From Macrostomum lignano (Eukaryota): DNA of 64,000 nt. The notes below the pieces were generated by a model. The model did no database searches. It was not told the origin of the DNA and saw nothing but the letters and a program-made list of their open reading frames with translations. The first letter of the stretch is position 1. Each line of letters opens with the position of its first letter. Below are positions 359 through 37,707 of the stretch, piece by piece. A program made the translations under genes and the position numbers. The stretch is from assembly GCA_002269645.1 (NCBI GenBank), contig NIVC01001051.1:248001-312000 (forward strand), read 5' to 3'.

Positions 359-1659
359 ACCGTGAGCGCTGAAGCGCTGACATCAGGTGTAAACGCCACG
401 GCCGGGACTGCCGCTGTCTCCGCTTAAGCAGCCGCCTCGAACAACAATGCAGTCGGTGCAAAGCGTACCATACCCTTCAGCAATTCGGTGGTCGTATCAA
501 AGTTAGCTCAGGATGGAACGGTCGTTGAAAGTATTTTGTATTGAACTCTCAGCAAATGGAAACTCGTATCATTGACAGTTCGGTTTAGCTCTATTTTCAG
601 TCAAATTTTTAACTTTGTTAAACTGTAACTCTTACTCTTGTTCTACTTTAAGCCATAACTTGTAAGCTTGCTCATGTATTGACTGCATGCCCATATGCAT
701 GCAGTAGTACTTCCAATCACCGTTAGTGAGGTTTCACAAGTCACCAATAGCCGCAACAGAAAAGCCATGCACTGACAAGCCATATCTAATTTTGGCAGAG
801 GTGGGGAGGGCGGGAGAAGGTGGCAGCAGAGAGCGGGAGTGTGGCGCCGGAGAGCGGGAAGGTGGCGGTAGAGAACGGGAAGGTGGCGCCGGAGAGCGGG
901 AAGGTGGTGGCATTGAGTGGGAAGGTGGCGGCGGAGAGCGGGAAGGTGGCGGTAGAGAGCGGGAAGGTGGTGGTAGAGAGCGGGAAGGTGGTGGTAGAGA
1001 GCGGGAAGGTGGTGGTAGAGAACGGGAAGGTGGCAGTAGAGAGCGGGAAGGTGGCAGTAGAGGGCGGGAAGGTGGCGGTAGAGAGCGGGAAGGTGGCGCC
1101 GGAGAGCGGGAAGGTGGCGGTAGAGGGCGGGAAGGTGGCGGTAGAGAGCGGGAAGGTGGCGCCGGAGAGCGGGAAGGTGGCGGTAGAGAGCGGGAAGGTG
1201 GCGGTAGAGAGCGGGAAGGTGGTGGTAGAGAACGGGAAGGTGGCAGTAGAGAACGGGAAGGTGGCGCCGGAGAGCGGGAAGGTGGTGGCATTGAGTGGGA
1301 AGGTGGCGGCGGAGAGCGGGAAGGTGGCGGTAGAGAGCGGGAAGGTGGTGGTAGAGAGCGGGAAGGTGGTGGTAGAGAGCGGGAATGTGGTGGTAGAGAA
1401 CAGGAAGGCTGCGGTGGAGAGCGGAAAAGTGGCGCCGGAGAGCGGGAAGGTGGCGCCAGAGTGGGGAAAGGTCTGACCAAACGATTGTCTTATCGCTCTA
1501 ACAATGTGGCTGAGTTTGCAATACCTGCATTTTTATATTTTAGTTAAAATAAAGCATAAATTGGCTTGTAGGTATTCTCTTCGTGAACTCTCGTTTTTGC
1601 GACTGTTGCTAAGTCTTGTGGAAATTTTGTTAAATTGGATTCTCTGAGTTCTTTACTTT
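359..1659 (+). repeat. Left arm of a long inverted repeat (foldback-like), partner 8356-9509
   Basis: accgtgagcgctgaagcgctgacatcagg at 359 is the reverse complement of 9481-9509; identity continues to ...gagttctttacttt (1659 / 8356). The arms differ mainly in minisatellite copy number. No TSD at the outer edges. Confidence 0.9.
818..1470 (+). repeat. 21-bp purine-rich minisatellite (gcgggaaggtggcggtagaga)n inside the left arm
   Basis: Direct tandem units; they generate the REREGGG / VESGKVA / PPPSRSL pseudo-ORFs. Confidence 0.95.
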
Positions 1660-2476
1660 CTTTTTTTCAAAGTGCCTCATTGTGCCAGTTTTTAGCATAG
1701 CAAGACAAAGAAAACATGTACGAGCGTACATCTATCTTCAGATGTTTCTTCGAATGTTAGAAAATGGATTGAAATTCGGGAGGGACTATTATCAATAGCT
1801 TATTCGTACAAAACTTTATCACGCCCAGCGCTATGCAATCATTGAAAGATAAGGTGAAATGTTTTAGTGTACTTTATAGGTGCCAATGCAAGTGCGTAGA
1901 GAGAAGGGATCGTTAGGACTGGGAGTCACCAATGAAAGTACAGAATCTATTCTGAATGGTTTCAATGTAATTGCTTACATGTGCACACAACGGACGTCCG
2001 CATGCAACTCCTGTCGTTCCTTGCATTTATTTGTACATTCATTCGACATTGTCTAGATATTTCGCTGTCCTCAGTTCTTTGCAAGACTAATTGATCCTAT
2101 ATAAGGAAGCTTTATGCACTGCACATGTGCTAGCTACATATAGTGGCTGCCTTTCCAGGACGCGAACTCAACGACTAGTGCAAAATGTATTGTACAATAC
2201 AATACGTGCATTAATTACACCTACAATAAAGCACAGTGCACGTACATATACTGTAGGTTTTGATAGGCTCGATGCGGCTCTTATAGCATCATTTACATGT
2301 ACATGTACATCTGCATCCATGAGCATTAGGGTACATTGACACTACATGAAGCATGCAGACTCACTGACTGAGCTGGCCTGATCCATGTGTTCGATTGGTC
2401 TACTCTACATTACATGTACACGCGCACACGTCCTTTGAGACTATTGTAGCGTTGCATCAATGAGCATCTGAGGCAT

Positions 2477-3300
2477 TTACTTGACTTTAGCTGGGGGCTC
2501 AGTGGGTCTGGGGGCGTTAACCTCCAGGGATTTTTCCCTGGAGGTTAACGATGCCTGGCAAAACAGTCATATGACCCAAAGGGCCATGTTCACCGCCCTG
2601 ATGACCCTGCGGTTGGGTCCAAGCAGGGCCCTGCATAGGGCGGACCGCCGCGCCGGATTGCCGGCAGTCGGGGGCGTTTGCCCACCTCTCCCTGCTTTGA
2701 AGCCACCCACTAGTTGATCCGAGTGGTGACAACAGCAATAGGGGTGGGGGCCACGGCCAGCAGGGGACCAGTAAAAAAACCGGCCGAGCCAGCCTTGGCC
2801 AGGCGATCGGCCAGCTCGTTGCCGGTTTTGAATTTGAGCGGAGGGCAGAGCGTGGACGGAATTCCGTTCGAGAGGGTCAGCAGGCCTCTCGCTGCTTCCA
2901 GGTCTCGCAGGCTGAGGTCGCCGGAGGATCCCTTTCTGAAGGCGAACTGCTTCTGGATGGGGCACCTGCGATAAGCAGACGGCGGGTGATTTTCATTGCC
3001 TCCCCTCTGACAAAGTCCAGGAAGGTGTTCATGCCAGCGAAGGGCGTAGATGGAGTCGCGCTCATGATATAGCTCGACAAGCGCGGCCTTGCACCCTGTT
3101 GAGAGCATCAAGAACCCCTTTCACCACTATAGGTCACTGTTCCAAATGAAGCCGGTGAATAAGATAGTCGGTCTCACAATGACAGTACGTGTAAGTCCAC
3201 CAGAGGCGGCGGGGTGAGGCCCCAGTAGCGCCGAAAGCTCTGCGGATGTGCGCGAGAGTCTCAAGAGCTTTGCGGGCTTTGGTTTTGACGTGTGGAGTCC
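2477..3300 (-). mobile_element. 5'-truncated, degraded R1/LOA-like (RNase H-bearing) LINE fragment
   Basis: Minus-strand pieces KARKALETLAHIRRAFG..RRLWWTY, VIVRPTILFTGFIW, LNRVQGRACRAI, SATPSTPFAGMNTFL (RT thumb region) and GNELADRLAKAGS..FTGP (RNase H C-terminus). Flanked by a 14-bp direct repeat AGCATCTGAGGCAT (2463-2476, 3301-3314). Confidence 0.7.
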
Positions 3301-3401
3301 AGCATCTGAGGCATGGCTCCAGTTCAGTACGACTAGTTTATACAGTCAGTCGCGTACTGCTTGATACATGTGCATAAACTTGAATTTATGCACGTATACA
3401 T

Positions 3402-6400
3402 ACAACAACAACAACAACAACAACAAGGTACTGCTCCCGCCGGCCACGCAGTAGCCAGAAAGGGGGGAGCAGTCAGAAAGCGCGTCTCTGGGCCATTGCC
3501 CTCAGGAAGTCGCATCCCCCTGCTTGGTCCGGGGCGCCAGCGTCACTCAGAAGTCGGTCAGGGTATCGCACCGTTCGCCCTTGGTCTCGCCTCCGCGGTC
3601 CCTGCAGCTTGAGCAGCAGCACGTCGTGTAGCGGCTCAGGACAGCGGGCCTCCGACCGGATGACGTGGCCAGCCAGTCGAAGTCGCCGCCCGCGCAGCAG
3701 GTCAGAAGGCCGCGTCAGGCGCGCCCTAGTGTAGAGCGCGGCGTTGGTCTCGCTGCCTGGGCCGCTGCGCACTCCGAAAGCCGCACGCAGCATTGCCGCA
3801 TGCGCAGCGTCCAGCTGCCTCTCCAAGGCGTCCGTCAGGGTCCAAGTCTCGGCGTTGTACAACAGGACAGTCTCGACGACTGCCTGAAACAGCCGAGCCT
3901 TGAGCCCGTCGTCCAGGGCCTCAGATTGGAGCACGGAGCGCACAGATCGAAATGCGGCCCAGGCCAGTCCTCGGCGTCTCTTCAGGTCGTCGGCAACGTC
4001 CGGCACGGAGCCGCCGAGGTACACAAAGCGCTCGCAGCGGGTAAGCATAAATGCATTCCCGGCAGCGTCTCGGTAATTGATCTCGGCCGGCAAGTCGGAG
4101 GGCACCGTGAACACTACCGTCTTCCGCGCGTTCAGCTTAAGGCCGACCCGCGACGCTGCCGCCGTCAGGCCATCAAGCAGCCGCTGGGCACCTTCAGCCG
4201 TCGATGAAAGTAGCGCGAGGTCGTCCGCATAGCCGAGAACGGAGAGCCGCTTCTCCGGGTGCCGCCGACTCGTGCGTCTTCTCAAAAGGAAGCCGTCATC
4301 CAGGTTGGGCAGGCCGGTTCCCAGCACCCAGTCCAGTGCCAGCACAAACAGAAAAGGCGCCAAAGTGTCACCCTGTAGCACGCCTGACGACGTGCTGAAT
4401 TGGTCTGACAGTCCATCTGGCGTCATCACCGAAGCGGTCGTGTCCTGGTACATCGCCATGATGGCGGAAATCAGTTGCTCCGGTACATTGTACGCACGAA
4501 GCACGAGAGGCAGCGCGCCGCGAGCCAGCGAGTCGAAGGCCTTGAGGAAATCAATGAAGATCACCACGAGACTTGACTGATGGATGCGCGCCTCCTCGAT
4601 GATGCGGCGGAGGGCTAGGATCTGCGTCACTGTGCCGCGATGTGGGCGGAACCCGTTCTGCTCAGTTCGCAGGAACTGGTCCAGCACAGGCTGTAACCGA
4701 GCCAGCAGCACCCGGTTGAACAGCTTCGCGGCGCAGGACATAAGCGAGATCCCCCTGTGCTCCTCCTTTCGTGTCGTGCCTGGCTTCTTCGGGATCGCGA
4801 CGATGTGCGCGGTTGTCCACTCGCGGGGCGCGGCATCTCCAGAAAGGAGACCGTTCATCACACGAGCCACCTCAATGGCGACCCTTGTGAGTCGCAGCAC
4901 CTCGATAGGCACCTCGTCCGGTCCCGGGGCGCGACCTCCCGGCGCATGGCGAGCGAACTGCCGAACTGCACAACGTCGTTGCTGGTCACTGGCTGGGTGT
5001 TGAAATCTTCCTGCGACGGCAGCGCCGTCTCGAGCGGCAGTGGCATCACTTCTGGCAGAGGCGGTGGCGGCGCGTTGACGATATCGGCGAAGAAGTCGCG
5101 TAGCTCATTTCTGCGCGCTTCTGGCGTGTTGCCGGTCAAGTTTAGCACCGTTTTCTTCTTGCGACCAGTCAAGGCGTTGATTGTCGGCCATACGAGCCGA
5201 TTCCGTTGGTCGAACCCTGCGGAGGTGACGCTTCGGATGGCATCGTCAACAGCGGCTTGCTGCCGCCTGACATAAACGTCTGACAGGGCTTTCTCGGCCT
5301 CTGCCGTCGGTCTCCTGGACCGTCGCAGCCTCTCGACTGTCCGCCTCGCCTCTTGAACCTCCTTGTCATCCGCCCAGACAGGGAGACTACGGGCTGCAGA
5401 TTTCATCAGTGGCAGAGTTTTGCTCGCTGCCGTCGCTACTGCCGCGCTAATTTCAGAGTAGTTACCGGTGCTCGCAGACTCTCCCAGTGCGGTGGCAAAC
5501 GCGTACGCGAACCTGCCGCGGGTGCTAGAATCTCGCAGAGCCCGGAAGTAGCGGCGTGGGGGTCGCTTGGGCGGCCTGTACAGCGGATCCCGGATGCGAA
5601 GGTTGCAGAAAAGCAGGCGGTGGTCGGATCGGATGGACAGCGGGGCCATCGTGTCGCAGTCTGTCACCCGACTGCGCTCGCGGTTACGAACAAGAATGTG
5701 GTCGAGCTGGGCCCGGCGCGTCGTGGCGTTTTGGCGCGCGTTCCGCTTTCTTCGCTTACAACCAGCAAAAGTCGCCAAACGAAAAGCAGGCTTGCGGAAG
5801 CGCGTGTTCGCCGACACCAGATCTTGCCGCGACATAAGGTCCGCAAGCGCACTAGAGTTGCCATTCTGGCGCGGGGACACGAACGGGGAGCGCTGGGACC
5901 TCTCCGCGACAGCGTTGAGATCGCCAAGCACCACCACAGTGTCACGCATTGCGACCGACTCGAGCTGCTCCGACAGGAAATCAAAGAACTCCTGCGCCTC
6001 ATGCTGATGGGCAGCTGTCGGTGCATACGCGCAGAACACCCGGGCGTTACGGCCTCGCAGTCTCACATCCACACGCAGAAGCCGAGGTGACACGGGGACA
6101 CAGCAGACACTCTGCTGCAGCCGCGGTCCGACTAGAGCGCCGACTCCTCCACGTCCTCGACTGTCCGCTGAGGTGAAAAACAGGGTCCAGCCGGCACCGA
6201 GATCCTCACGTTGGAGGCCGTCCTGCGTCACAATTGAAACTTCCTGCAGCATCACAATGTCCAGCTGCAGATCGGATGCCAGCTGCGCCAGCATTCCCCT
6301 CCTCCAAGCAGGTTTGAGAGTGCGACAGTTGAAGGTGGCAATTCTAAACGCGCTTCCTGGTACAGCTGGGGCCCGGACTTGTTGGGCCTCACGGTCTCCT

Positions 6401-6706
6401 GCGCTACCAGGCAGAACCGATTGGATAGGGGCCGGGTCAAGCAAACTTGCAGACTTGCGAAAACGACCTTTCAGCCGTCCTCGCCTGTTGCGCTCACGCC
6501 GCCGCTGGATGCGCCGGTGGAGACTTCGTTTGCCTCGCCGGTTGCCCTTCCTGCCGCTGTTAGCAGCCGCAGCGTCCGTGTTAGCAGAGCGCGGCTCACC
6601 GCTCTCACCTGGGCAAGCGCCAGCCAGATGGCAAGCGTCACCCGGAGGTCGCAGCATATTTGCACCGAAGTGCAAATTTAATAGAACTGAATAGAATTAT
6701 AATAGA
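3402..6706 (-). mobile_element. Full-length RTE-clade-like non-LTR retrotransposon
   Basis: Single APE+RT reading frame, (TTG)n 3' tail at 3403-3425, 10-bp TSD ACGTATACAT at 3392-3401 and 6707-6716. Confidence 0.9.
3473..6657 (-). pseudogene. APE endonuclease-reverse transcriptase ORF (~1060 aa) broken by one frameshift
   Basis: APE motifs TFNCRTL, LQEV, GDLNA, LDHILV, SDH; RT motifs QNGFR, FIDFLKAFDS, GVLQGDTLAPFLF, YADD, YLG. Removing an 8-bp tandem duplication (cgaactgc x2, 4954-4969) restores VVQFARHAPGGRAPGPDEVPIEVLR. Confidence 0.9.
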
Positions 6707-7699
6707 ACGTATACATGTATACACAAAAATACATGTCTTGTGTGTGCATGGCTTTTGTTTTATGGGTATTGGTGACTTGTGGAACCTCACATAACTGTGA
6801 TCTACGTACTACGTACATTACTACGTACTGCACGTATATATTTGCATCAATATATTGATGCACATATGCACATGCACATATGCATATATGGTACAGTACA
6901 TAAGCTATGAATAGAAATTACATGTACAGCATATACATGTACATGTAGTCAAGTGACTTGACTATATCTGCATGTACAAGTGATTACACATTGATCCCAG
7001 TAAAAACAATCAATCAAGGATGGACCTTGATGGACAAGGATGTGGACCTCCACATTGGAGACTCGATCTAAGCTGTGAACTGTGTTACGAGTATATTGAT
7101 GCAACCCGGTCGTGCAACGAGCGCGCACCGATTCCCAGGATCCGGTGCTGAAAAGCACTATACTGGGCAAGCCTCGTTCCCTATACATAGTCGTACTGCA
7201 AATAAAGCTACAAGTACATGTACAAGTTGGCGAGTTCCGCACAAGATCGTGACATGCAGTAAGTACGAGTACTGTTGTGTCAATATGCCTCAGATGCAAC
7301 GATACCATCAGTCTCAAAAGTATACATGTACATGTAGAACCATCGCACATGGTTCAGGTCAGCTCAGTCTGTCTGCATGTTTTCTGTAGTCGTCAATGTA
7401 CCCTAACGCTCATGGATGCAGATCTATATAATTCTAGAGCGACATCAAGTCGATCAACACCTACATGTGTAATGGTTTTATTCCTGTATATTGGACTATG
7501 ACAAATATTTTGCTGGGTAAAGGTATCGCTTTAATGTACGTTCGCTCTTTTTATAAATAAAGCGAGCACTGCCTCCACGGGGCCTTCGTTGAGTTTTACA
7601 CTGCCAAATACCGTGCGTTACACACCTTCATGTACATTTAAATGCTTTATTGTAGTAATCAAGGACTACTAGACTATATGTATATTCCAATGGTCCTTG

Positions 7700-8345
7700 G
7701 GTGCAACTGTGTCAGGTATTTACCCAGATGCCTCAACGCTCAATCGGAGACGCTATTCCGTAGCTATCGACCCGCGCGATGCCATCAATGACCACTGGAA
7801 CCGTGGTGAGCTCCACTTCTACACTACACTTCTAAAAACAAAATTATCCTTAAGTGGGAGCCGGGGCATGTGAGGATTCGAGGAAATGAGCTGACTGACA
7901 TTCTTGCATTGCAAAAGTTGGCGCCTCCGGCTCCTCTCTCGGGCCCGAACCCCTTTGTACTCTCTCAAGTCACGACTGCTTCTCCAGGCACCAGTACCTG
8001 CAGGGCAATAACCACCGCCATCTGCAACTCCGGAGACGCAACTTCGCGCATTCATGAGAGCCAGACTCAGTTACCTTTGGCCACACACATCAATTATCAA
8101 AGCGCGCAAACCTAAAAATCTTAATTAAGTTCATGCGCTACCTCCAGGCCACCCGCAGGGCTGAACTCTCCTTCCAGAGAGCAACATAGCTGATGGCGAC
8201 ACTGGGGGACCTCCCTAGTCCCTAGTCACCAACCCTTCGTTCATAGCGACGCGTCGGCCGTTCAGGGATTAGCGGAATGGGGGCCCGTGCCTTCCCACTG
8301 TGTCCCCTCCGGAACAGTCATGCAGCTGAGTCAAAGTCAAGAAAT
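7700..8345 (+). mobile_element. Second degraded R1/LOA-like LINE 3' fragment
   Basis: ELHFYT and IILKWEPGHVRIRGNELTDILA are RNase H remnants; it ends in aaagtcaag, like the 2477-3300 copy. Confidence 0.55.
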
Positions 8346-8355
8346 TATGAAAAAT

Positions 8356-9509
8356 AAAGTAAAGAACTCAGAGAATCCAATTTAACAAAATTTCCACAAG
8401 ACTTAGCAACAGTCGCAAAAACGAGAGCTCACGAAGAGAATACCTACAAGCCAATTTATGCTTTATTGTAACTAAAATATAAAAATGCAGGTATTGCAAA
8501 CTCAGCCACATTGTTAGAGCGATAAGACAGACGTTTGGTCAGACCTTTCCCCACTCTGGCGCCACCTTCCCGCTCTCCGGCGCCACTTTTCCGCTCTCCA
8601 CCGCAGCCTTCCTGTTCTCTACCACCACATTCCCGCTCTCTACCACCACCTTCCCGCTCTCTACTGCCACCTTCCCGCTCAATGCCACCACCTTCACGCT
8701 CTCTACTGCCACCTTCCCGTTCTCTACCACCACCTTTCCGCCCTCTACTACCACCTTCCCGCCCTCTACTGCCACCTTCCCGCTCTCTACTGCCACCTTC
8801 CCGCCCTCTACCGCCACCTTCCCGCTCTCCGGCGCCACCTTCCCGCTCTCTACCGCCACCTTCCCGTTCTCTACCACCACCTTCCCGCTCTCTACCACCA
8901 CCTTCCCGCTCTCTACCGCCACCTTCCCGCTCTCCGCCGCCACCTTCCCACTCAATGCCACCACCTTCCCGCTCTCCGGCGCCACCTTCCCGTTCTCTAC
9001 CGCCACCTTCCCGCTCTCCGGCGCCACACTCCCGCTCTCTGCTGCCACCTTCTCCCGCCCTCCCCACCTCTGCCAAAATTAGATATGGCTTGTCAGTGCA
9101 TGGCTTTTCTGTTGCGGCTATTGGTGACTTGTGAAACCTCACTAACGGTGATTGGAAGTACTACTGCATGCATATGGGCATGCAGTCAATACATGAGCAA
9201 GCTTACAAGTTATGGCTTAAAGTAGAACAAGAGTAAGAGTTACAGTTTAACAAAGTTAAAAATTTGACTGAAAATAGAGCTAAACCGAACTGTCAATGAT
9301 ACGAGTTTCCATTTGCTGAGAGTTCAATACAAAATACTTTCAACGACCGTTCCATCCTGAGCTAACTTTGATACGACCACCGAATTGCTGAAGGGTATGG
9401 TACGCTTTGCACCGACTGCATTGTTGTTCGAGGCGGCTGCTTAAGCGGAGACAGCGGCAGTCCCGGCCGTGGCGTTTACACCTGATGTCAGCGCTTCAGC
9501 GCTCACGGT
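8356..9509 (-). repeat. Right arm of the long inverted repeat; contains a shorter 21-bp minisatellite (8551-9050)
   Basis: Reverse complement of 359-1659. Confidence 0.9.
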
Positions 9510-14976: not shown

Positions 14977-17900
14977 TCCAATATACTAAAAATCCTATAT
15001 ACTAAAAATGGTCTGTCTGTGTCTATCTATCTATCTATCTATCTATGTGATCGATTAGAGAAAAAATGGCTGGACCGATTTTGTTCGAACTTGCACTGTT
15101 CGATCAGAAATTTTCCCGTGACGGTACATGCATCGTGGCTAAGAAATTGCTCGATGCTAAAGGCATTAAATATTCGAAAAACATGCTTTTTTGCAAAGGT
15201 CAAGCAAACTTTTCGACTTGAAATGCATTGTAAGAATGCTAGAGAAAAAACTTACTGGTTGAATTCTGATTCTGAAATAGATTGCATCATAACTGAATTG
15301 TAACTCCGACTTGAATTGGAAATGCAGTGTGAAAGCGTAGCACCAGACTTGATTTAAATTGCGTAACCATATTGTTAACTGATACCGACTGACTGAAAAA
15401 CTGATTATGTCATAACTGCTTCGTGTGATTTACTCTATGCTTGGATTTTAAAGTGTTGAATTATATAAGTGCAAAAGTTGATGTTATCAAAACGATGAGA
15501 GCTAGCCTAGAGGTGAACAAACTGAACAGCTAAATGCAGAGACGATGGTTCGAATTTTCATAGAGTATAATTTTTTTAATTAAAGCTTTTCAACGTCAGG
15601 AAAACTAAAAGACTTTTTAAAAAGAAGCGTCATGTAAAAAATCATAGAAGCGTCATGTAAACAATCATAGAAGCGCCATGTAAACAATCATAGAAGCGTC
15701 ATGTAAAAAAATCATAGAAGCGTCATGTAAACAATCATAGAAGCGTCATGTAAACAATCATAGAAGCGTCATGTAAACAATCATAGAAGCGTCATGTAAA
15801 CAATCATAGAAGCGTCATTTAAACAATCATAGAAGCGTCATTTAAAAAATCATAGAAGCGTCATGTAAACAATCATAGAAGCGTCATGTAAAAATCATAG
15901 AAGCGTCATGTAAACAATCATAGAAGTGTCATGTAAAAAAATCATAGAAGCGTCATGTAAAGAATCGTAGAAGCGTCATGTAAACAATCATAGAAGCGTC
16001 ATTTAAAAAATCATAGAAGCGTCATGTAAAAATCGTAGAAGCGTCATGTGAAAAATCATAGAAGCGTCATGTAAACAATCATAGAAGCGTCATGTAAACA
16101 ATCATAGAAGCGTCATGTAAAAAATCATAGAAGCGTCATGTAAACAATCATAGAAGCGTCATGTAAACAATCATAGAAGCGTCATGTAAACAATCATAGA
16201 AGCGTCATGTAAACAATCATAGAAGCGTCATGTAAACAATCATAGAAGCGTCATGTAAACAATCATAGAAGCGTCATGTAAACAATCATAGAAGCGTCAT
16301 GTAAAAATCATAGAAGCGTCATGTAAACAATCATAGAAGTGTCATGTAAAAAAATCATAGAAGCGTCATGTAAAGAATCGTAGAAGCGTCATGTAAACAA
16401 TCATAGAAGCGTCATGTAAAAATCATAGAAGCGTCATGTAAAAATCGTAGAAGCGTCATGTAAAAAATCATAGAAGCGTCATGTAAACAATCATAGAAGC
16501 GTCATGTAAACAATCATAGAAGCGTCATGTAAAAAATCATAGAAGCGTCATGTAAACAATCATAGAAGCGTCATGTAAACAATCATAGAAGCGTCATGTA
16601 AACAATCATAGAAGCGTCATGTAAACAATCATAGAAGCGTCATGTAAACAATCATAGAAGCGTCATGTAAAAAGCAATCATAGAAGTGTCATGTAAAAAA
16701 ATCATAGAAGCGTCATGTAAAGAATCGTAGAAGCGTCATGTAAACAATCATAGAAGCGTCATTTAAAAAATCATAGAAGCGTCATGTAAAAATCGTAGAA
16801 GCGTCATGTAAAAATCATAGAAGCGTCATGTAAACAATCATAGAAGCGTCATGTAAACAATCATAGAAGCGTCATGTAAACAATCATAGAAGCGTCATGT
16901 AAACAATCATAGAAGCGTCATGTAAACAATCATAGAAGCGTCATGTAAACAATCATAGAAGCGTCATGTAAACAATCATAGAAGCGTCATGTAAACAATC
17001 ATAGAAGCGTCATGTAAAAAATCGTAGCAGCGTCATGAAAAAATCATAGAAGCGTCATTTAAAAAATCATAGAAGCGTCATGTAAACAATCATAGAAGCG
17101 CCATGTAAACAATCATAGAAGCGTCATTTAAAAAATCATAGAAGCGTCATGTAAACAATCATAGAAGCGCCATGTAAAAAATCATAGAAGCGTCATGTAA
17201 ACAATCATAGAAGCGCCATGTAAACAATCATAGAAGCGTCATGTAAAAAATCATAGAAGCGTCATGTAAACAATCATAGAAGCGTCATGTAAAAAATCAT
17301 AGAAGCGTCATGTAAACAATCATAGAAGCGTCATGTAAACAATCATAGAAGCGTCATGTAAACAATCATTGAAGCGTCATGTAAAAAATCATAGAAGCGT
17401 CATGTAAACAATCATAGAAGCGTCATGTAAACAATCATAGAAGCGTCATGTAAACAATCATAGAAGCGTCATGTAAACAAGCATAGAAGCGTCATGTAAA
17501 CAATCATAGAAGCGCCATGTAAACAATCATAGAAGCGTCGTTTAAAAAATCATAGAAGCGTCATGTAAACAATCATAGAAGCGTCATGTAAAAAATCATA
17601 GAAGCGTCATGTAAACAATCATAGAAGCGTCATGTAAACAATCATAGAAGCGTCATGTAAACAATCATAGAAGCGTCATGTAAAAAATCATAGAAGCGTC
17701 ATGTAAACAATCATAGAAGCGTCATGTAAACAATCATAGAAGCGTCATGTAAACAATCATAGAAGCGTAATTTAAAAAATCATAGAAGCGTCATGTAAAA
17801 AATCATAGAAGCGCTATGTAAACAATCATAGAAGCGTCATGTAAACAATCATAGAAGCGTCATGTAAAAATCATAGAAGCGTCATGTAAACAATCATAGA

Positions 17901-20351
17901 AGCGTCATGTAAAAATCATAGAAGCGTCATGTAAAAAATCATAGAAGCGTCATGTAAAAAATCATAGAAGCGTCATGTAATGAATCATAGAAGCGTCATG
18001 TAAAGAATCGTAAAAGCGTCATGTAAACAATCATAGAAGCGTCATTTAAAAAATCATAGAAGCGTCATGTAAAAATCGTAGAAGCGTCATGTAAAAAATC
18101 ATAGAAGCGTCATGTAAACAATCATAGAAGCGTCATGTAAACAATCATAGAAGCGTCATGTAAACAATCATAGAAGCGTCATGTAAACAATCATAGAAGC
18201 GTCATGTAAACAATCATAGAAGCGTCATGTAAACAATCATAGAAGCGTCATGTAAACAATCATAGAAGCGTCATGTAAACAATCATAGAAGCGTCATTTA
18301 AACAATCATAGAAGCGTCATGTAAAAAATCGTAGCAGCTTCATGAAAAAATCATAGAAGCGTCATGTAAAAAATCATAGAAGCGTCATGTAAACAATCAT
18401 AGAAGCGCCATGTAAACAATCATAGAAGCGTCATTTAAAAAATCATAGAAGCGTCATGTAAACAATCATAGAAGCGCCATGTAAAAAATCATAGAAGCGT
18501 CATGTAAACAATCATAGAAGCGCCATGTAAACAATCATAGAAGCGTCATTTAAAAAATCATAGAAGCGTCATGTAAACAATCATAGAAGCGTCATGTAAA
18601 AAATCATAGAAGCGTCATGTAAACAATCATAGAAGCGTCATGTAAACAATCATAGAAGCGTCATGTAAACAATCATTGAAGCGTCATGTAAACAATCATA
18701 GAAGCGTCATGTAAACAATCATAGAAGCGTCATGTAAACAATCATATAAGCGTCATGTAAAAAATCATAGAAGCGTCATGTAAACAATCATAGAAGCGTC
18801 ATGTAAACAATCATAGAAGCGCCATGTAAACAATCATAGAAGCGTCATTTAAAAAATCATAGAAGCGTCATGTAAACAATCATAGAAGCGTCATGTAAAA
18901 AATCATAGAAGCGTCATGTAAACAATCATAGAAGCGTCATGTAAACAATCATAGAAGCGTCATGTAAACAATCATAGAAGCGTCATGTAAAAAATCATAG
19001 AAGCGTCATGTAAACAATCATAGAAGCGTCATGTAAACAATCATAGAAGCGTCATGTAAACAATCATAGAAGCGTAATTTAAAAAATCATAGAAGCGTCA
19101 TGTAAAAAATCATAGAAGCGCTATGTAAACAATCATAGAAGCGTCATGTAAACAATCATAGAAGCGTCATGTAAAAATCATAGAAGCGTCATGTAAACAA
19201 TCATAGAAGCGTCATTTAAAAAATCATAGAAGCGTCATGAAAAAATCATAGAAGCGTCATGTAAACAATCATAGAAGCGTCATGTAAACAATCATAGAAG
19301 CGTCATGTAAACAATCATAGAAGCGTCATGTAAAAAATCATAGAAGCGTCATGTAAAAAATCATAGAAGCGTCATGTAAAAAATCATAGAAGCGTCATGT
19401 AATGAATCATAGAAGCGTCATGTAAACAATCATAGAAGCGTAATGTAAAAAATCATAGAAGCGTCATGTAAAAAATCATAGAAGCGTCATGTAAACAATC
19501 ATAGAAGCGTCATGTGAAAAATCATCGAAGCGTCATCTAAAAAATCGTAGAAGCGTCATGTAAGAAATCATAGAAGCGTCATGTAAAAATCATAGAAGCG
19601 TCATGAAAAAATCATAGAAGCCTCATTTAAAAAGTAATGAAAGTGTCATTTAAAATATTAAGAAGCATCATGGTAGAATAAAAGAAGCGTCATGTCAGAC
19701 ATGAAGGGTGTCATGTAAAAATTAAATGAAGCTATAATGCTGTGCTGGGGAGAATTACTGAGATGTCAAGGCTCTCAGAGAATAACTTAGATTACGGGGG
19801 GGGGGTTTCTGAGATGTCAAAGCAATAGTCAGAGGCTATTTCAAAGTTCATGTACTTTACTCAATTTTTTATTGCATTCTTTGTTGGCTCGCCACGGGGG
19901 GGGGCGCTGATAAAAAAGCGTAATGTAAAAAATAAAAGAAGCTTCATGTCGAAGTTAAGAGATTCATTTGGGAATCCCTACGATGTCGAGGCTTGCAGGG
20001 AATCGCTATAATGCTGTAGTAGTGCTATAATGACTCTCAGAGAGAATTACTGAAATTTCAATGCTTTAGGGTTAGGTCAGGGTTAGGGTTAGGCTAGGGT
20101 TAGGGTTAGGCTAGGGTTAGGGTTAGAAGGTTGACAGATATTTTTAGATTTCCAAGGCTTATTGGGGGCATTGCTGAGATGTCAATGGGGGAAGTTGATA
20201 TGTTAAAGCTTGTGGGGGGGGGGAGTTATTGACATGTCAAGGCTTACAAGGTTTGACAGGAGATTTTTTAAGATTTCAAGGAAATATGTAGCTTATTAAA
20301 AAACGTGTATTGCATTTCTTTGGCTCCCCAACGGGGGGCGTAGATTGCTAG
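14977..20351 (+). mobile_element. Non-autonomous Helitron-like element carrying a 4-kb satellite
   Basis: 5' TCCAATATACTAAAAAT..GTCTGTCTGTG-(TCTA)n..GGACCGATTTTG; 3' ccccaacggggggc hairpin then CTAG at 20348-20351. Confidence 0.75.
15622..19630 (+). repeat. 23-bp satellite caatcatagaagcgtcatgtaaa, roughly 170 copies
   Basis: Contiguous tandem units with no spacers. Confidence 0.97.
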
Positions 20352-28203: not shown

Positions 28204-29468
28204 ATGGACGCATGCGTAATTTGTAAACAGACTGTACGACCCAGACAACATGCGCTACTGTGCGACTTGTGCAACAAATGGCAGCATCGGACATGCAATT
28301 CTGGTAAGTTAACAATGCGTATATCAGTATTTACGTATAGTATATAGTTTTGCTATATAGTTTTGTATTTAAACTTGTATTTTTGTATACTTTTGTATTT
28401 TGTATATATAATAGTATATTAATAGTAAGCGATTAACCTTTTAACCTTGCAGGCATTTCATTGACTAAGTATCGGCAGCTTATGACTGAGACGGACATAA
28501 CTTATGTCTGTAGTAAATGTAAGTCTGAAGCTGAGGCTGCCGCTGAGGCTGCCGCTGAAGCTGAGGCTGCCGCTGAAGCTGAGGCTGCCGCTGAAGCTGA
28601 GGCTGCCGCTGAAGCTGAGGCTGCCGCTGAAGCTGAGGCTGCCGCTGAAGCTGAGGCTGCCGCTGAAGCTGAGGCTGCCGCTGAAGCTGAGGCTGCCGCT
28701 GAAGCTGAGGCTGCCGCTGAAGCTGAGGCTGAAGCTGAGCCTGCCGCTGAAGCTGAAGCTGCCGCTGAAGCTGAAGCTGCCGCTGAAGCTGAAGCTGCCG
28801 CTGAAGCTGCCGCTGAAGCTGAGGCTGCCGCTGAAGCTGAAATGTTCAGCCTTCGACCAGGTGCCAGCAAGCGCGGAGGGGATCTACTGATCTCTTCGCA
28901 AGGATTCATCCTCGGACGCAATGGAGGAAAAGGGGGTTCAAGGTATTGGAAGTGCGTGACTCGCAATAGCGCAATAGCCTATGCTGCTGATCCTGTCACG
29001 CGTACGCTGTGCCGCCAACTGATGGCACTGCCTTACCTTCCATCGGGGCAGATGGAGGCAGCTTTCGAGCAACTGCGACCACAGGCGACGACACAGCCTT
29101 TAATGGAGCTGTGCAACTACGTCGACCAGACATGGCTGTCGCACCCAGTCTGGTCTGTGCAGTCGTTATCAGCCTTTCAGCAGATGGACAGGACGAACAA
29201 TGCCGTTGAGGGATGGCACTCGGGCCTGCGCAAGCGTGCTGGTGTCCGCATGAACGTTTTTGCCCTCATCGGTGTCCTGGCTGAACAGGCCCGCATTTTG
29301 GGCCTACAAATTCGACAGCTGGCACCTATTCCTGCTCCACGCACCGACAATGTCCGACACAGGCGCGATGTGGCGCTACAGGCTGCTTGGGCCGACTATG
29401 CAGCTCGCAAGCTGACCAGCTATGAGCTCCTACAGCGCTGTGGCAACAGTGCTGTGGCGCTGTCTTAG
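28204..29468 (+). CDS. Spliced PHD finger - (AEAEAA)n - partial FLYWCH - MULE transposase C-terminus (exons 28204-28303, 28453-29468)
   Basis: Exon 1 MDACVICKQTVRPRQHALLCDLCNKWQHRTCNSG, phase-1 GT..AG intron, then ISLTKYR..YVCSKCK completes a C4HC3 PHD. Followed by GGDLLISSQGF..YWKC and LMALPYLP, YVDQTWL, RTNNAVEGWH. Confidence 0.8.
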
Positions 29469-32740: not shown

Positions 32741-32809
32741 TACATTTCCCTACTACTACACACAAACACACTTATAACCCATCGCCCGCGCCGCAGGCGC
32801 GAAGGGTCT
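32741..32809 (+). repeat. Left terminal inverted repeat (remnant), 62/69 identical to 58797-58865
   Basis: Manual alignment; the first 29 nt are identical. Confidence 0.9.
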
Positions 32810-32827: not shown

Positions 32828-33193
32828 ATGAACCGAGTTTACAACTTTTCAGTAAGCGATACTTTTGAGACTGTTGCTAAAAATGCAGAGATAATAAAAC
32901 AGCACATATTGAATGGAATAATTGATGAAGTTTATTTAAAATATGACGACGGAAGCGAACTAAAACTTTATCCGTTAGAGTTGGATGGGCTGTATGATTT
33001 AGAACAAGAGGGTGAGTTAATATTTCAACTTGGAGATTATTTAAATTCCGAGGATTGGGAGGTTAGGTCAACAGATTCTGAATCAACAAATAGTTCTTAT
33101 GAAACTAGTTCCACCAGTGAACGAGCCGAGAGAACCCGAGGCCCCGCCAGGGGCCGAGGGCGAGTAAATAAGTTAGACTCCCATGCATTTTGA
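32828..33193 (+). CDS. Viral hypothetical protein (121 aa) with an I.NG.I..V.L..K.YPL module; 3' end possibly altered by an insertion
   Basis: ORF track; TAAAAATG start; module shared with 35653-36156. Confidence 0.6.
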   Translation: MNRVYNFSVSDTFETVAKNAEIIKQHILNGIIDEVYLKYDDGSELKLYPLELDGLYDLEQEGELIFQLGDYLNSEDWEVRSTDSESTNSSYETSSTSERAERTRGPARGRGRVNKLDSHAF

Positions 33194-35458
33194 AATTTCA
33201 CGTTTTTTCGCTAAAAAATGCTCCTGTTTTGCAACCACTGCATCGATTAAGTTGAGTGAGGTGTCGATCGATAGAAAACTTTTAAATCTATCGAATGAAT
33301 ATACTTTTAAGTGCAGAGATTTTATTACTGAGCCGTAAATTAAGTGGAAAGACGATTTTTTCAAAAGTGCTTCTGGGAGATCTTAAAATTCTGGTACACC
33401 TTACGAGATACGGCTTCGACATCTGAGGATCAAAGTTGTAAAACTAAATTTCCTACAAAATGGTATATAACGCTTTGATTTATTTCGGCATCTTTATTCA
33501 GTTTTGGTGGGTTTTTTAGGTAAAAAATTGACACTCATTTTATTATTGTGCCACTTTTTCCTACAAAGGTTTTTTAGTTTAGGCTTCAAAGCAGTGCAGT
33601 TGGGTGCGCAATGCAAAAATCTACAAGTGTCTAAAGTTTTGTTTCCCTACGATTCTGCAGTGCTGAGAAAATCGACAAAAATCGATTTTTCAAAAAATCA
33701 CATGACTTTCGCATTATTGCTCATTATAATTTTGAGAACATGGTGCGAATAAGCCGATTTCGAATTTCTATAGCATAGTTGCTGTACTATATTGGTTTAA
33801 ATTGCCGCCGTCTGATTTCGCTGCTTTCGGGTTGAAAAATCGATCAGAAATCGATAATTTGTGATTTTTGGCTGATTGGGTGCCAGAAAAATGGGTAATT
33901 AAATTTTTAAAAGAATGGTAGATCAAATGCGGATACTGCAACGAGTTGTACTAATGTCTGGCTAAAATTGACCAAGTTTTTGAATGTCTGCACCAAATGC
34001 TCATGTGTCAAAAGTGATTGGAAATCGATCAGAGTAGTGATTTTTTAATATTTTGCTTGAAATCAGGCAAAAAAACGCAATAGGACGGCATTATTTTAAT
34101 GACGGCTGATTTCCCACATAACGAGGCATATTTGTGTGCAATTTCTAGAGATTCGGTTCATTGGGTAAAAAATTATCGATAAAAAACTGAAAACTTGACT
34201 TTTTACTTTTATGTTAGTTCCGGGGCTATTTAAACTGGAAATGGTAGGAATTTTGCACTGAAACCAATGCACAGTGTTTCATATAGTTAATTTAACAAAT
34301 TTCTTGAATTTCATAACCATTCGATGTTTTTTTCATGTAAAAAATTCCTTTTTTGCACCAAAATTCATCACATTAAGCTGCATACCGCTTTGCATAATCT
34401 GCATTTGCATGCGATTGCTCGCATGGCTTTGGCGTTGGGCTGAGTTAGGCTGGTTAGAAAGGAAAGGAAGGAAGGAATAATCGTACATACAATGTACACT
34501 CCCGTCCCTTTTAACTGGGGTTGTGGCGTGTGGGCTTGGGCCGGAGAGGCGTCAATAGAGCTTCATTTGCTTCGCGCACAGACCAAGGAAAATTAGATCG
34601 ATAAACGGCGTCACGTGATTAGAATTTAGTGTTAAATTTAGCTCTTTAACTGCACGTTTGAATTGCAAGCCCAGTACAAAGTTTGGCGGGGGGAAGCTCC
34701 AAGTCACTACGTGTACAATCCTCCCCCTGACTAAAAGGTCAAGCGATACGGCTTCTGAAGTAGCTATGCTATGTACAGTGTTTTGGAAAGACTATTTATA
34801 GCTTTCTTTGCAACTCCGTTAATGGAGAAGAGGCTTAGGGTATCTTATTATTCTTAAGTGTACTATCTGATTGAGAGTACGAGGTTTATGTTCCACAAAA
34901 CTGGCCTGACTTTCCATTTCCAAGCACTTAAGCTGCGATGCTAAGAGGATCATGCGCCGAAACAACCAGCTTAATGAGGTGGTATAACCCTGCTACGCTC
35001 TGGATACTTTAGTTTAGAGTCATTAGACAATTTTTTTAGATCGAGGCCTTCGAGAAGTTCGAGGGCCTATTATAGAATATTCGATTCCAGCTCATGGCTG
35101 CGGGTCAGATCAGATGAGAGAAAATGAAAGAGAATAGAGAGAAGAGATAAGACTAAGAGGAGATAAGAGATAAGACGAGAGCTAGAAGCGAGAGGAGAGG
35201 GGGAGACTAGAGAGAGAGATTAGAGAGGAGGGAAACAGAACAGACAGGAGAGAAAATGGGAGAAGTAGAGATTTACATTTTTCTTGAGCTTCTCAAAGTT
35301 CTTTTTCATCGGTACAAAACTAGGTTTATCAAGTAGTATGAAGACCCACGTCTAAAAAGAAGCCCGTTCACTGGTGGCAAAAAGACGTGTGCGTCTTCAT
35401 ACTACTTGTGAATCGGATAATGAAAACGAAATTTTTATGTGAAAAATATAACTTAAAA

Positions 35459-36435: not shown

Positions 36436-37707
36436 TTAAACTAACATTAATTGGTTCTCATAAAACGAACCCAATATTTCTTCACCATCTTTATCAGCAA
36501 TGATATAGGTTGTAGGATTTGTATTTAAAACTTTACTAACAGTAAATTTCTCACTTATTTTCCAATATCCTTTTCTTCCCTTTTCAAACTTATCTTTCCA
36601 TTTATAGATATAAACAGAATCACCAACTTTAAAAGGTTTAGTTTTCTTTTTTTCGAATTCTCCAAAAGTAACTTTAACTTTTTCAGGATTGTTATAAGCG
36701 TGTTGTGGAGTCATATTTATAGCCGAATGAAATGAATTATTATAATCTTTCGCTACGTCTGGTAATATTTTTACCCACTTTTGGTTACCATTAAGACTAA
36801 ACTGAAACCATAATTTCTTACCTAAAGTTCGATTAAATCTTTCAATCAGTGCGTTTTTGCTTTCGCCATAAATAGAATAAATTTTATTAATATACTCACC
36901 ATTTGCGCCCTTTATCCTTTCTTTTCCTTTCTCAAAATGATATAATCTATACATATGTGGATTGTAAAATTCCTTTCCTTCATCAACACATAAACGTTCA
37001 CTTTTTTCTCCAATACTTCTAAAAGCAGAAGCAACCTCCTCTCCATTTTTGGATTTCAAAGGAACAGCCCACGCATATCGAGTAAAACCATCTAATACAG
37101 TTAAAATATATTTATATCCCCAATCGGACGGCATTGCCATTAAATCAGCATACCAAATTTCATTCTTTTTAAAGTTCATGATCTTTCGATAAAATTTCGG
37201 TTTTCGGTATTCTTTGTGAAGAATCTTTGCCTCATCATAACTTAACCCACCACCACTTAATAATAAACATTCTACACAATTATTTCCATGCTGGTTGTAA
37301 TTAATTCCTAAACCAAATTTAACTTTAGACTGCAAAATCTTTTTAACCATCCACCAAGTTAATCTTTGGCTTACCGACAACCCCTGTAAATTATCTAATC
37401 CTTCAATCATTTTTCTATCGGCTTCATGCTTTAATCTTAATGCTTCCTCAGGAGAGTTCTTATCAGCATCTCTGTATGCTAAGTCATGATAATATGCTAA
37501 CCAATCAATACCGTTAATGGGAATCGAATCTGATTTTGGAGTGTCATCAGGATTTAACCTTAAATCCAACCGAGTCCCGGGACCTGCATAGGAATAACCT
37601 GGAATATGTAATTCATTCGTATACCGCCCAGTAGTAAAGATAGGCGGTAAGCTTGTTAATCCTTTCTGAACATCCAATAATCCACCTTCAAACACAAGTT
37701 GGTTCAT
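36436..37707 (-). CDS. INT: Parvovirus-type phospholipase A2 domain fused to a retroviral-like (DDE) integrase, 423 aa, intact
   Basis: PLA2 motifs GYSYAGPGT, PINGIDWLAYYHDLAY, HEAD. Integrase motifs LHKEYRK, IWYADL, YILTVLDGFTRYAWAVPLKSK, VDEGKEF, IERFNRT, and C-terminal GSFYENQL. Confidence 0.92.
   Translation of the reverse strand: MNQLVFEGGLLDVQKGLTSLPPIFTTGRYTNELHIPGYSYAGPGTRLDLRLNPDDTPKSDSIPINGIDWLAYYHDLAYRDADKNSPEEALRLKHEADRKMIEGLDNLQGLSVSQRLTWWMVKKILQSKVKFGLGINYNQHGNNCVECLLLSGGGLSYDEAKILHKEYRKPKFYRKIMNFKKNEIWYADLMAMPSDWGYKYILTVLDGFTRYAWAVPLKSKNGEEVASAFRSIGEKSERLCVDEGKEFYNPHMYRLYHFEKGKERIKGANGEYINKIYSIYGESKNALIERFNRTLGKKLWFQFSLNGNQKWVKILPDVAKDYNNSFHSAINMTPQHAYNNPEKVKVTFGEFEKKKTKPFKVGDSVYIYKWKDKFEKGRKGYWKISEKFTVSKVLNTNPTTYIIADKDGEEILGSFYENQLMLV

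Follow-up and report, generated by a model that had tools for sequence, protein, structure and literature searches.

The window, a stretch of 64,000 nucleotides, contains a gene that joins a parvovirus VP1u-type phospholipase A2 (PLA2) to a retroviral-type integrase in one reading frame. Comparison of its copies and homologues indicates that the fusion is conserved and under purifying selection. The fusion recombines known Polinton parts; the more surprising result is that the PLA2 calcium loop is a site of group I introns. From the sequences and by analogy with mavirus, we consider it probable that the gene encodes a packaged PLA2-integrase precursor that is cut at Gly-x/Gly sites, with intron splicing coming first in most copies. 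One precursor would load PLA2 and integrase 1:1 into the capsid, and the protease would trim it at G9/L10, L133/G134, and G153/G154. The PLA2 would then help the particle to cross a membrane and the integrase would insert the genome, leaving a 6-bp target duplication. Most copies have a group I intron at the calcium-loop codon, and its self-splicing would have to precede all of these steps.

A conserved PLA2-integrase fusion gene

The fusion gene (36436..37707, minus strand) is an intron-less allele encoding 423 aa, delimited by its open reading frame, Pfam matches, and comparison of copies. The initial annotation had described a single unbroken frame joining the two enzymes, and this was borne out, with the YAGPG, HDLAY, and HEAD motifs all found. 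The VP1u-type PLA2 domain (aa 32-110; 37378..37614, minus strand) includes the YAGPG loop, H74-D75, Y78, and D97, and matches PF08398 over aa 32-110 with 33.1 bits (cut-off 23.9). H74, D75, Y78, and D97 were present in 30 of 30 own-genome copies and 28 of 31 homologues. The Tyr of the calcium loop is often Phe and the residue before it His, Met, or Asn. By these features the N-terminal half is a parvovirus-type PLA2, with phospholipase activity predicted. The integrase half (36439..37230, minus strand) comprises D188, D242, and E289 followed by a C-terminal beta domain. Its match to PF00665 (rve; aa 180-247, E 7e-7) scored 29.9 bits, below the cut-off of 32.6. The DDE triad is kept in 28 of the 31 aligned homologues, and the remaining three are truncated. 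An AlphaFold model of the fusion, built from the 31-sequence alignment (mean pLDDT 80.5), matched the foamy-virus (PFV) integrase in Foldseek with E 1e-14. Both halves were recovered by profile and structure searches under the names first given to them, the PLA2 above its Pfam cut-off and the integrase through rve and Foldseek together. The integrase half is accordingly modelled as a DDE triad in an RNase H fold.

A search of the same genome scored 99 of 2018 candidate copies, with identities of 89-100%. Ninety of the 99 had no stop inside the match, although best hits favour intact copies. We retrieved 60 loci, and 52 sister loci remained after the removal of eight duplicates. The linker was readable in 49 of these and PLA2 and integrase were in one frame in all 49, a count that, like all copy counts given here, is inflated by redundant haplotypes because host genes occur in three to four near-identical copies. 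A second family (family 2, 57% identity) is likewise fused. Outside this genome, nine proteins matched the PLA2 half, and both Pfam families were detected in seven of them. In 20 of the best 150 cluster representatives (50% identity), the match starts no later than aa 57 and continues into the integrase; most other representatives among the best 150 are unfused integrases. The 31-sequence alignment consisted of the query, eight of the nine matches, and 22 of the 150 representatives, picked for reaching the PLA2 part; both Pfam families were matched in 24 of its 31 proteins, and P0027 lacks the PLA2. Pairwise dN/dS among 25 distinct copies was 0.05 in the PLA2 (after codon 44), 0.07 in the linker, and 0.09 in the integrase, values from copies chosen as best hits in which recombination could carry an older signal. 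The initial annotation had raised the concern that the fusion is a lost stop of one copy. This artefact was ruled out by the fused sister copies, the fused family 2, and about 20 further, unrelated clusters with the same arrangement.

Other arrangements of the two genes were also observed. At one IMG/VR locus (L110), PLA2 and integrase are neighbours but differ in frame, and a further six loci have a PLA2 without an integrase match. In the homologue P0009, the PLA2 is joined instead to an N-terminal adenain-like protease region, which shows that virion genes other than the integrase can also acquire the PLA2 module.

Stand-alone Polinton PLA2 genes have been described (PMC8502044, PMC5803895, PMC3671162, bioRxiv 2026.06.19.733378). 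In animal Polinton/Maverick elements, as in the adintovirus PLA2X and the Sf-Maverick CAP, a VP1-like PLA2 accompanies pPolB, rve, ATPase, and adenain, as it does here, and a membrane role has been proposed for it (PMC8502044, PMC5803895). The PLA2 described there is a separate gene, with a pX-like tail in PLA2X, whereas in the present element it forms the N-terminal domain of the integrase protein. The words 'fused' and 'fusion' are absent from the main text of PMC8502044, and its supplementary maps could show a fusion. The accessible parts of papers on nematodes, coral, entomopoxvirus-PLV, and mosaicism mention neither the fusion nor Polinton introns of the kind described below. A literature search, covering mainly the main texts of open-access papers, returned no report of the fusion or of group I introns in animal Polintons.

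Group I introns at the calcium-loop codon

The window copy has an empty insertion site at codon G42/P43 (37581..37582, minus strand), where most sister copies carry an intron of type A, B, or C. Three of the 99 scored own-genome copies match from residue 1, and the others begin at residues 42-45 because the insertion follows codon G42; the junction is spanned by 3 of 40 scored matches. Introns were found in 49 of the 52 sister loci, 46 of type A (about 300-333 nt) and three of type B, and a search for type B yielded 23 complete copies and one partial copy. The window copy is a rare intron-less allele. The initial annotation had missed that most copies are split by group I introns.

When introns were scanned alone, type A matched RF00028 in both of the two loci scanned, with 62.3 bits in L010 and 60.0 bits in L038 (cut-off 50), and type B with 38.3 bits, under the cut-off, at E 2e-8. 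Whole-locus Rfam scans missed types A and B, and scans of short stretches recovered RF00028. In a hand-set P1-P9 model of 25 type A rows, 97.7% of cells were paired. Eight pairs had changed on both sides, and four of these eight represent one P2 swap. None of 500 shuffles was as high, a control that is inflated by the relatedness of the rows. The U.G at the 5' junction (P1) and all P7 pairs, the G-C of the guanosine site included, were kept in 25 of 25 type A rows, and P7 varies among types A, B, and C by compensatory changes. P9.0 adjoins the last intron base and the insertion is in phase 0. Based on RF00028 and the complete P1-P9 core, the inserts are group I introns, with self-splicing predicted. 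From the P2, P2.1, and P5abc extensions, we presume an IC1-like subgroup. A spliceosomal intron was ruled out, as the insert has a group I fold and no GT...AG ends at its in-frame junction, and read-through of the 303/333-nt inserts was ruled out by in-frame stops.

A genome search with RF00028 scored 28 loci with 72-91 bits, all of them in family 2 (about 57% identity). The type C introns of this family (836-895 nt) occupy the same codon site as types A and B, and their last base was G in all 27 loci that could be parsed. Within the P2.1 loop they contain an ORF with its own TAAAAATG start that matches PF09553 (Eco47II-like) above the cut-off. This ORF is full length in 13 of the 28 loci, has a dN/dS of 0.36, and is a candidate homing endonuclease. 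Among the top 30 family 2 loci, 28 could be parsed, of which 17 contain the intron and 11 do not. The splice-site base is C, not T, in all 11 intron-less loci. In the intron-bearing copies of the fusion gene, the exon sequence directly preceding the site is highly variable (HIPGYSYAG, HLPSMNFTG, and others), a pattern that a nearby nuclease target would produce. We propose that the introns derive from giant-virus-type introns and spread by homing into this strongly conserved codon, with endonucleases like the Eco47II-like type C ORF as the driving force. Alleles that lack the intron and differ in junction sequence would then be unconverted or resistant.

The ends of the introns bear on whether they splice. 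The last base of type A introns is A in 34 of 46 copies and the usual G in 12 (five indel-shifted rows were set by eye). The 3' boundary of type B is ambiguous: in 23 of 23 complete type B introns, the canonical Pro-Gly codons were not recovered in frame at the 3' junction, and splicing at the best-paired 3' end would remove two residues from the calcium loop. Together with the intron-less alleles of the two families (3 of 99 copies in the first, 11 of 28 loci in family 2), the terminal A and the odd type B junction favour the possibility that the fusion functions as proposed and most intron copies (A-ending type A and type B) are non-splicing passengers that depend for their movement, in trans, on copies with no intron or with a G-ending one. 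We regard this as unlikely, though a serious competitor, as the ribozyme core is intact and covarying among these copies. In the A-ending type A group, P7 is unchanged and both exons are constrained, with purifying selection on exon 1 (0.24) and exon 2 (0.05-0.09), and the ATG context is kept. Across the intron-bearing copies, exon 1 has likewise kept its ATG, with a dN/dS of 0.24. A Coxiella rRNA intron is reportedly a precedent for A-ending group I introns. The type B integrase has a dN/dS of 0.26, a value probably inflated by ungapped comparison. For one A-ending copy, contigs from 4 of 20 runs covered the intron and both unspliced boundaries and contained no exon joint; no run with matching sequence was listed as RNA, the RNA status of these four is a guess, and their contigs show presence only.

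The nearest relatives of the introns, by core motif, appear to be in giant-virus genes, and a transfer from giant-virus introns would be the direction that this suggests. The two-part core motif matched three metagenome loci. Two of these are introns in RNA-polymerase large-subunit genes with GIY-YIG-like ORFs, and the third lies beside an endonuclease VII/HNH-like ORF with 31% identity to a window ORF at 37688-38185. At least 120 IMG/VR loci also matched the motif, many labelled as giant-virus MAGs, including 26 by RNA polymerase motifs and 10 by capsid motifs, with 84 unassigned; none of these at least 120 loci had a PLA2-integrase beside the motif. An AAAATG start was found in 11 of 15 genes. 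AAAATG resembles poxvirus-type starts; it is weak evidence because it may be an AT-rich translation context.

The window ORF (37688..38185, minus strand) is a free-standing endonuclease VII/HNH-like ORF that overlaps the start of the fusion gene. It was present in 39 of 52 copies, including all three intron-less copies, and co-segregation of the gene with the intron was thus rejected. A word search returned no homologue for it and Pfam no match. It is homologous to an ORF that runs into the group I intron of L119.

Giant-virus group I introns, for example in the Bodo saltans virus RNA polymerase, likewise interrupt conserved codons of essential genes, occur with and without homing endonucleases, and share the core motif with the Polinton introns (PMC5871332). 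They differ from the introns described here, which lie in elements of animal chromosomes, target a PLA2 calcium loop, encode an Eco47II-like PD-(D/E)xK nuclease in place of the HNH/GIY-YIG cargo, and in many cases end in A (PMC5871332). Group I introns of protist PLVs are similar in matching RF00028, in their size (309-376 nt), and in lying in endogenous Polinton-like elements (PMC12220804). As that source describes them, they are limited to a few groups of protists and interrupt a short gene that lacks annotation and precedes the capsid gene; they differ in having no animal host and no defined endonuclease (PMC12220804). A 2013 review described nuclear group I introns as confined to rRNA genes of eukaryotic microorganisms (PMC3679873). 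The present introns belong to the same ribozyme class and differ in lying in a protein-coding gene of an animal nuclear genome (PMC3679873, PMC9223047).

Dozens of intact group I introns in a protein gene of animal Polintons widen the known range of these introns and would connect it with giant-virus intron pools. They also provide a natural series for ribozyme work, G-ending and A-ending, with and without cargo. Because intron-plus and intron-minus alleles occur in one genome, splicing and homing are directly testable. More tentatively, and with somewhat less than even confidence, we suggest that animal Polintons carry working mobile ribozymes acquired from giant viruses, that the A-ending ones splice, and that through a homing nuclease of restriction-enzyme type co-resident Polintons attack one another's PLA2-integrase genes. 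If this is true, the elements would meet giant viruses as virophage-like particles, and group I self-splicing would act on protein-coding genes in animal chromosomes.

Two features of individual introns were noted separately. A GC-rich double-hairpin unit of 30-33 nt with compensating stem changes has been inserted repeatedly, both within introns and where the PLA2 gene begins: between P5c and P5a in the introns of L013, L016, L017, and L008, at about 1345-1380 in L038, and at 1600-1630 and 1700-1730 in L150. The unit recalls the mobile double-hairpin elements of fungal mitochondria. In L007 (1177-1400), unrelated sequence stands in place of exon 1 and the 5' portion of the type A intron.

Candidate protease sites in the fusion protein

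The linker reads KVKFGLG...LLLSGGGLSY, with L150-S-G-G-G154 inside it, and is predicted to be disordered, with a pLDDT below 50 for residues 134-152 in the AlphaFold model. At the N terminus, F6-E-G-G/L10 (37678..37692, minus strand) is a candidate GG/X site before the PLA2 at which cleavage is proposed, and a similar GG, GS, or GN precedes the PLA2 domain in many homologues. K130-F-G132-L-G134 (37306..37320, minus strand) is a G-x-G that closes the last PLA2 helix and is the best-conserved candidate GX/G site. G132-x-G134 was found in 24 of 31 aligned homologues, and two more have GG. The P4 residue of this putative cut is mostly Lys (17 of 24), in contrast to the adenoviral Met, Ile, or Leu. 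A linker motif H140...C144-x-x-C147 (37267..37290, minus strand) is common to the homologues P0001 and P0002 and family 2. The second linker candidate, L150-S-G-G/G154 (37246..37260, minus strand), is a clade-restricted (M/I/L)xGx/G site. Own-genome copies read LSGGG in 31 of 52 cases and LSGSG in 18 of 52, so that all 49 readable copies fit this pattern. The same position reads IHGKG in P0001, LYGSG in P0002, and IYGKG or IYGNG in 24 of 28 family 2 loci. At 150-154, four lineages have (I/L)xGxG, and none of its x positions is constant among them.

Across the alignment, a motif at the LSGG column was present in 3 of 31 fusion proteins, in addition to family 2. The adenain consensus occurred within the linker region of 7 of 31 wider-family homologues, versus 2.5% by chance. 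One adenain-type motif is expected in about 2.5% of 39-aa stretches, and a single motif in 423 aa is unremarkable. LSGG gains weight as a site because it lies within the linker and is kept in close relatives. The initial annotation had proposed LSGG as the protease site. The expectation of a conserved GG or GxG in the linker was correct for G132-x-G134 (24 of 31) and incorrect for the LSGG position. LSGG itself is not conserved across the family, since LSGS replaces it in 18 of 52 copies, but the site fits the adenain consensus in close relatives.

The element encodes an adenain-family cysteine protease (43086..43520, plus strand; H64, D79, Q109, C116), as the annotation had assumed. A profile of this protein and 12 relatives matched adenain (1AVP) and ASFV S273R at E 1e-3, and the four residues are invariant. 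The adenain motif (M/I/L)xGx/G is cited in bioRxiv 341131, and the mavirus protease is described as cutting at GG/X and GX/G (PMC6048507). From the motifs together with the mavirus precedent, we infer that the two linker sites and the N-terminal GG/L site are protease cuts, and the fusion is likely to be cleaved by the element's own protease. In mavirus, the integrase (MV02) and a lipase-like hydrolase (MV13) are both found in the virion, and the protease MVP splits MV13 at a candidate GK/G (PMC6048507). The mavirus enzymes differ in that they are encoded by separate genes, the lipase has a different fold, and the host is a protist (PMC6048507).

Part of the same evidence can be read as a fusion that is never cleaved, in which the PLA2 remains on the integrase as a tag for packaging or membrane targeting and the glycine motifs have a structural role. 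In the model, a long helix terminates at G132-x-G134, which may cap it; P4 of this motif is usually Lys, and the linkers of some homologues are only 12-20 aa long. We judge this reading improbable, as (I/L)xGxG is kept in four lineages within a low-confidence and variable linker, the mavirus protease cuts GX/G (PMC6048507), and such motifs are found again in the core-like ORFs of the element, as repeated xG[S/K/D]GL and GG(L/I). More doubtful still is the initial version, with LSGG/G as the single maturation site. It fits the adenain consensus (bioRxiv 341131) and is located in the low-confidence linker, but 18 of 52 copies read LSGSG and the site is missing from 28 of 31 aligned proteins, compared with the presence of G132-x-G134 in 24 of 31. 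Whether animal Polintons form infectious particles, and where their genes are expressed, are long-open questions. A conserved PLA2-integrase precursor that is cleaved at the Gly-x/Gly sites would be a concrete substrate for the element's protease, and argues for a particle stage.

The Polinton in the window and its sister elements

The fusion gene lies inside a Polinton that extends from about 32741 to 59132 and contains later insertions. The window copy is decayed, with broken capsid, ATPase, and PolB genes and a missing outer left end. The major capsid protein gene (39027..40505, plus strand), assigned by position and homology to sister copies, has a premature stop, and the A32-type packaging ATPase (41337..42046, plus strand; PF04665 weak, E 0.01) is broken. 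A probable minor capsid (penton) protein (42121..42906, plus strand) was named from size and synteny. Pfam gave no match for the capsid genes, whose names rest on size and synteny. The protein-primed PolB (47756..51062, minus strand) is in three pieces due to a frameshift and a stop, and is in one frame in a sister copy (C77). Part of a core-protein-like ORF with repeated xG[S/K/D]/G-L motifs was found at 51831..52277 (minus strand). Two further core-protein-like ORFs with pX-like GG/(L/I) motifs (57128..58124, minus strand) were split off by a later insertion. The left terminal inverted repeat (TIR) is a remnant (32741..32809) that lacks its outer part. The right TIR (58797..59132) ends in ACTACT and contains an internal inverted copy of the terminal ~85 nt.

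Both ends were present in four of the seven sister regions retrieved. These four elements are 17-19 kb long with TIRs of 306-380 bp that are 95.6-99.7% identical. Exact 6-bp target duplications were found in three of the four, and that of the fourth is imperfect. Based on its sequence features, the element is a Polinton/Maverick, with PolB and rve, capsid, ATPase, and protease genes, TIRs of the form AGTAGT/ACTACT, and a 6-bp duplication. The assembly contains 33 collagen IV C4 matches and 140 innexin matches, which point to an invertebrate animal host. Of two other host markers, COX1 yielded a weak, broken match, and the erythrocruorin linker yielded none, which is uninformative. It is extremely improbable that the fusion is an accident of the window copy or that the elements are a protist contaminant, as the descriptions of PLA2 as a stand-alone Polinton gene and of group I introns in protist PLVs (PMC12220804) might suggest, given that all readable copies and many unrelated clusters are fused, that contigs C10, C13, and C23 carry both innexin genes and these elements, and that three of four two-ended elements have exact 6-bp target duplications.

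Several other features of these elements were observed. In the TIRs (58849-59132 in the window, and at both ends of the elements on C3967, C77, and C629), the terminal ~85 nt are repeated in inverted orientation ~270 nt inward, and each end could therefore fold as a long hairpin. One core-protein ORF of the Polinton is split by a 4.9-kb insertion (52278-57159), which has TIRs of 214 nt (96%) and is flanked by an 8-nt target duplication, and two further insertions (~33190-35400 and 40515-41310) are missing from sister copies. A 555-aa ORF (43544-45211) combines repeats of 19 aa with a discoidin (F5/8 type C) domain (E 5e-10). No other gene varies as much between sister copies (33-86% identity), and it is probably a fibre or receptor-binding protein. 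The PolB contains a recombination endonuclease VII-like domain (49430-50656; PF02945, E 6.5e-8). Two adjoining Polintons in opposite orientation, both with type A introns, were found in one region (G000:C629:19501-49500; L075-L077).

Elsewhere in the window, a separate 9-kb element (359-9509) has inverted repeats of 967 nt (95%) and a GC-rich interior. An ORF with an Ala/Glu repeat is followed by a FLYWCH/MULE-like transposase remnant (28482-29468), named by eye. A tandem array of about 155 units of 23 nt occupies ~15500-20000.
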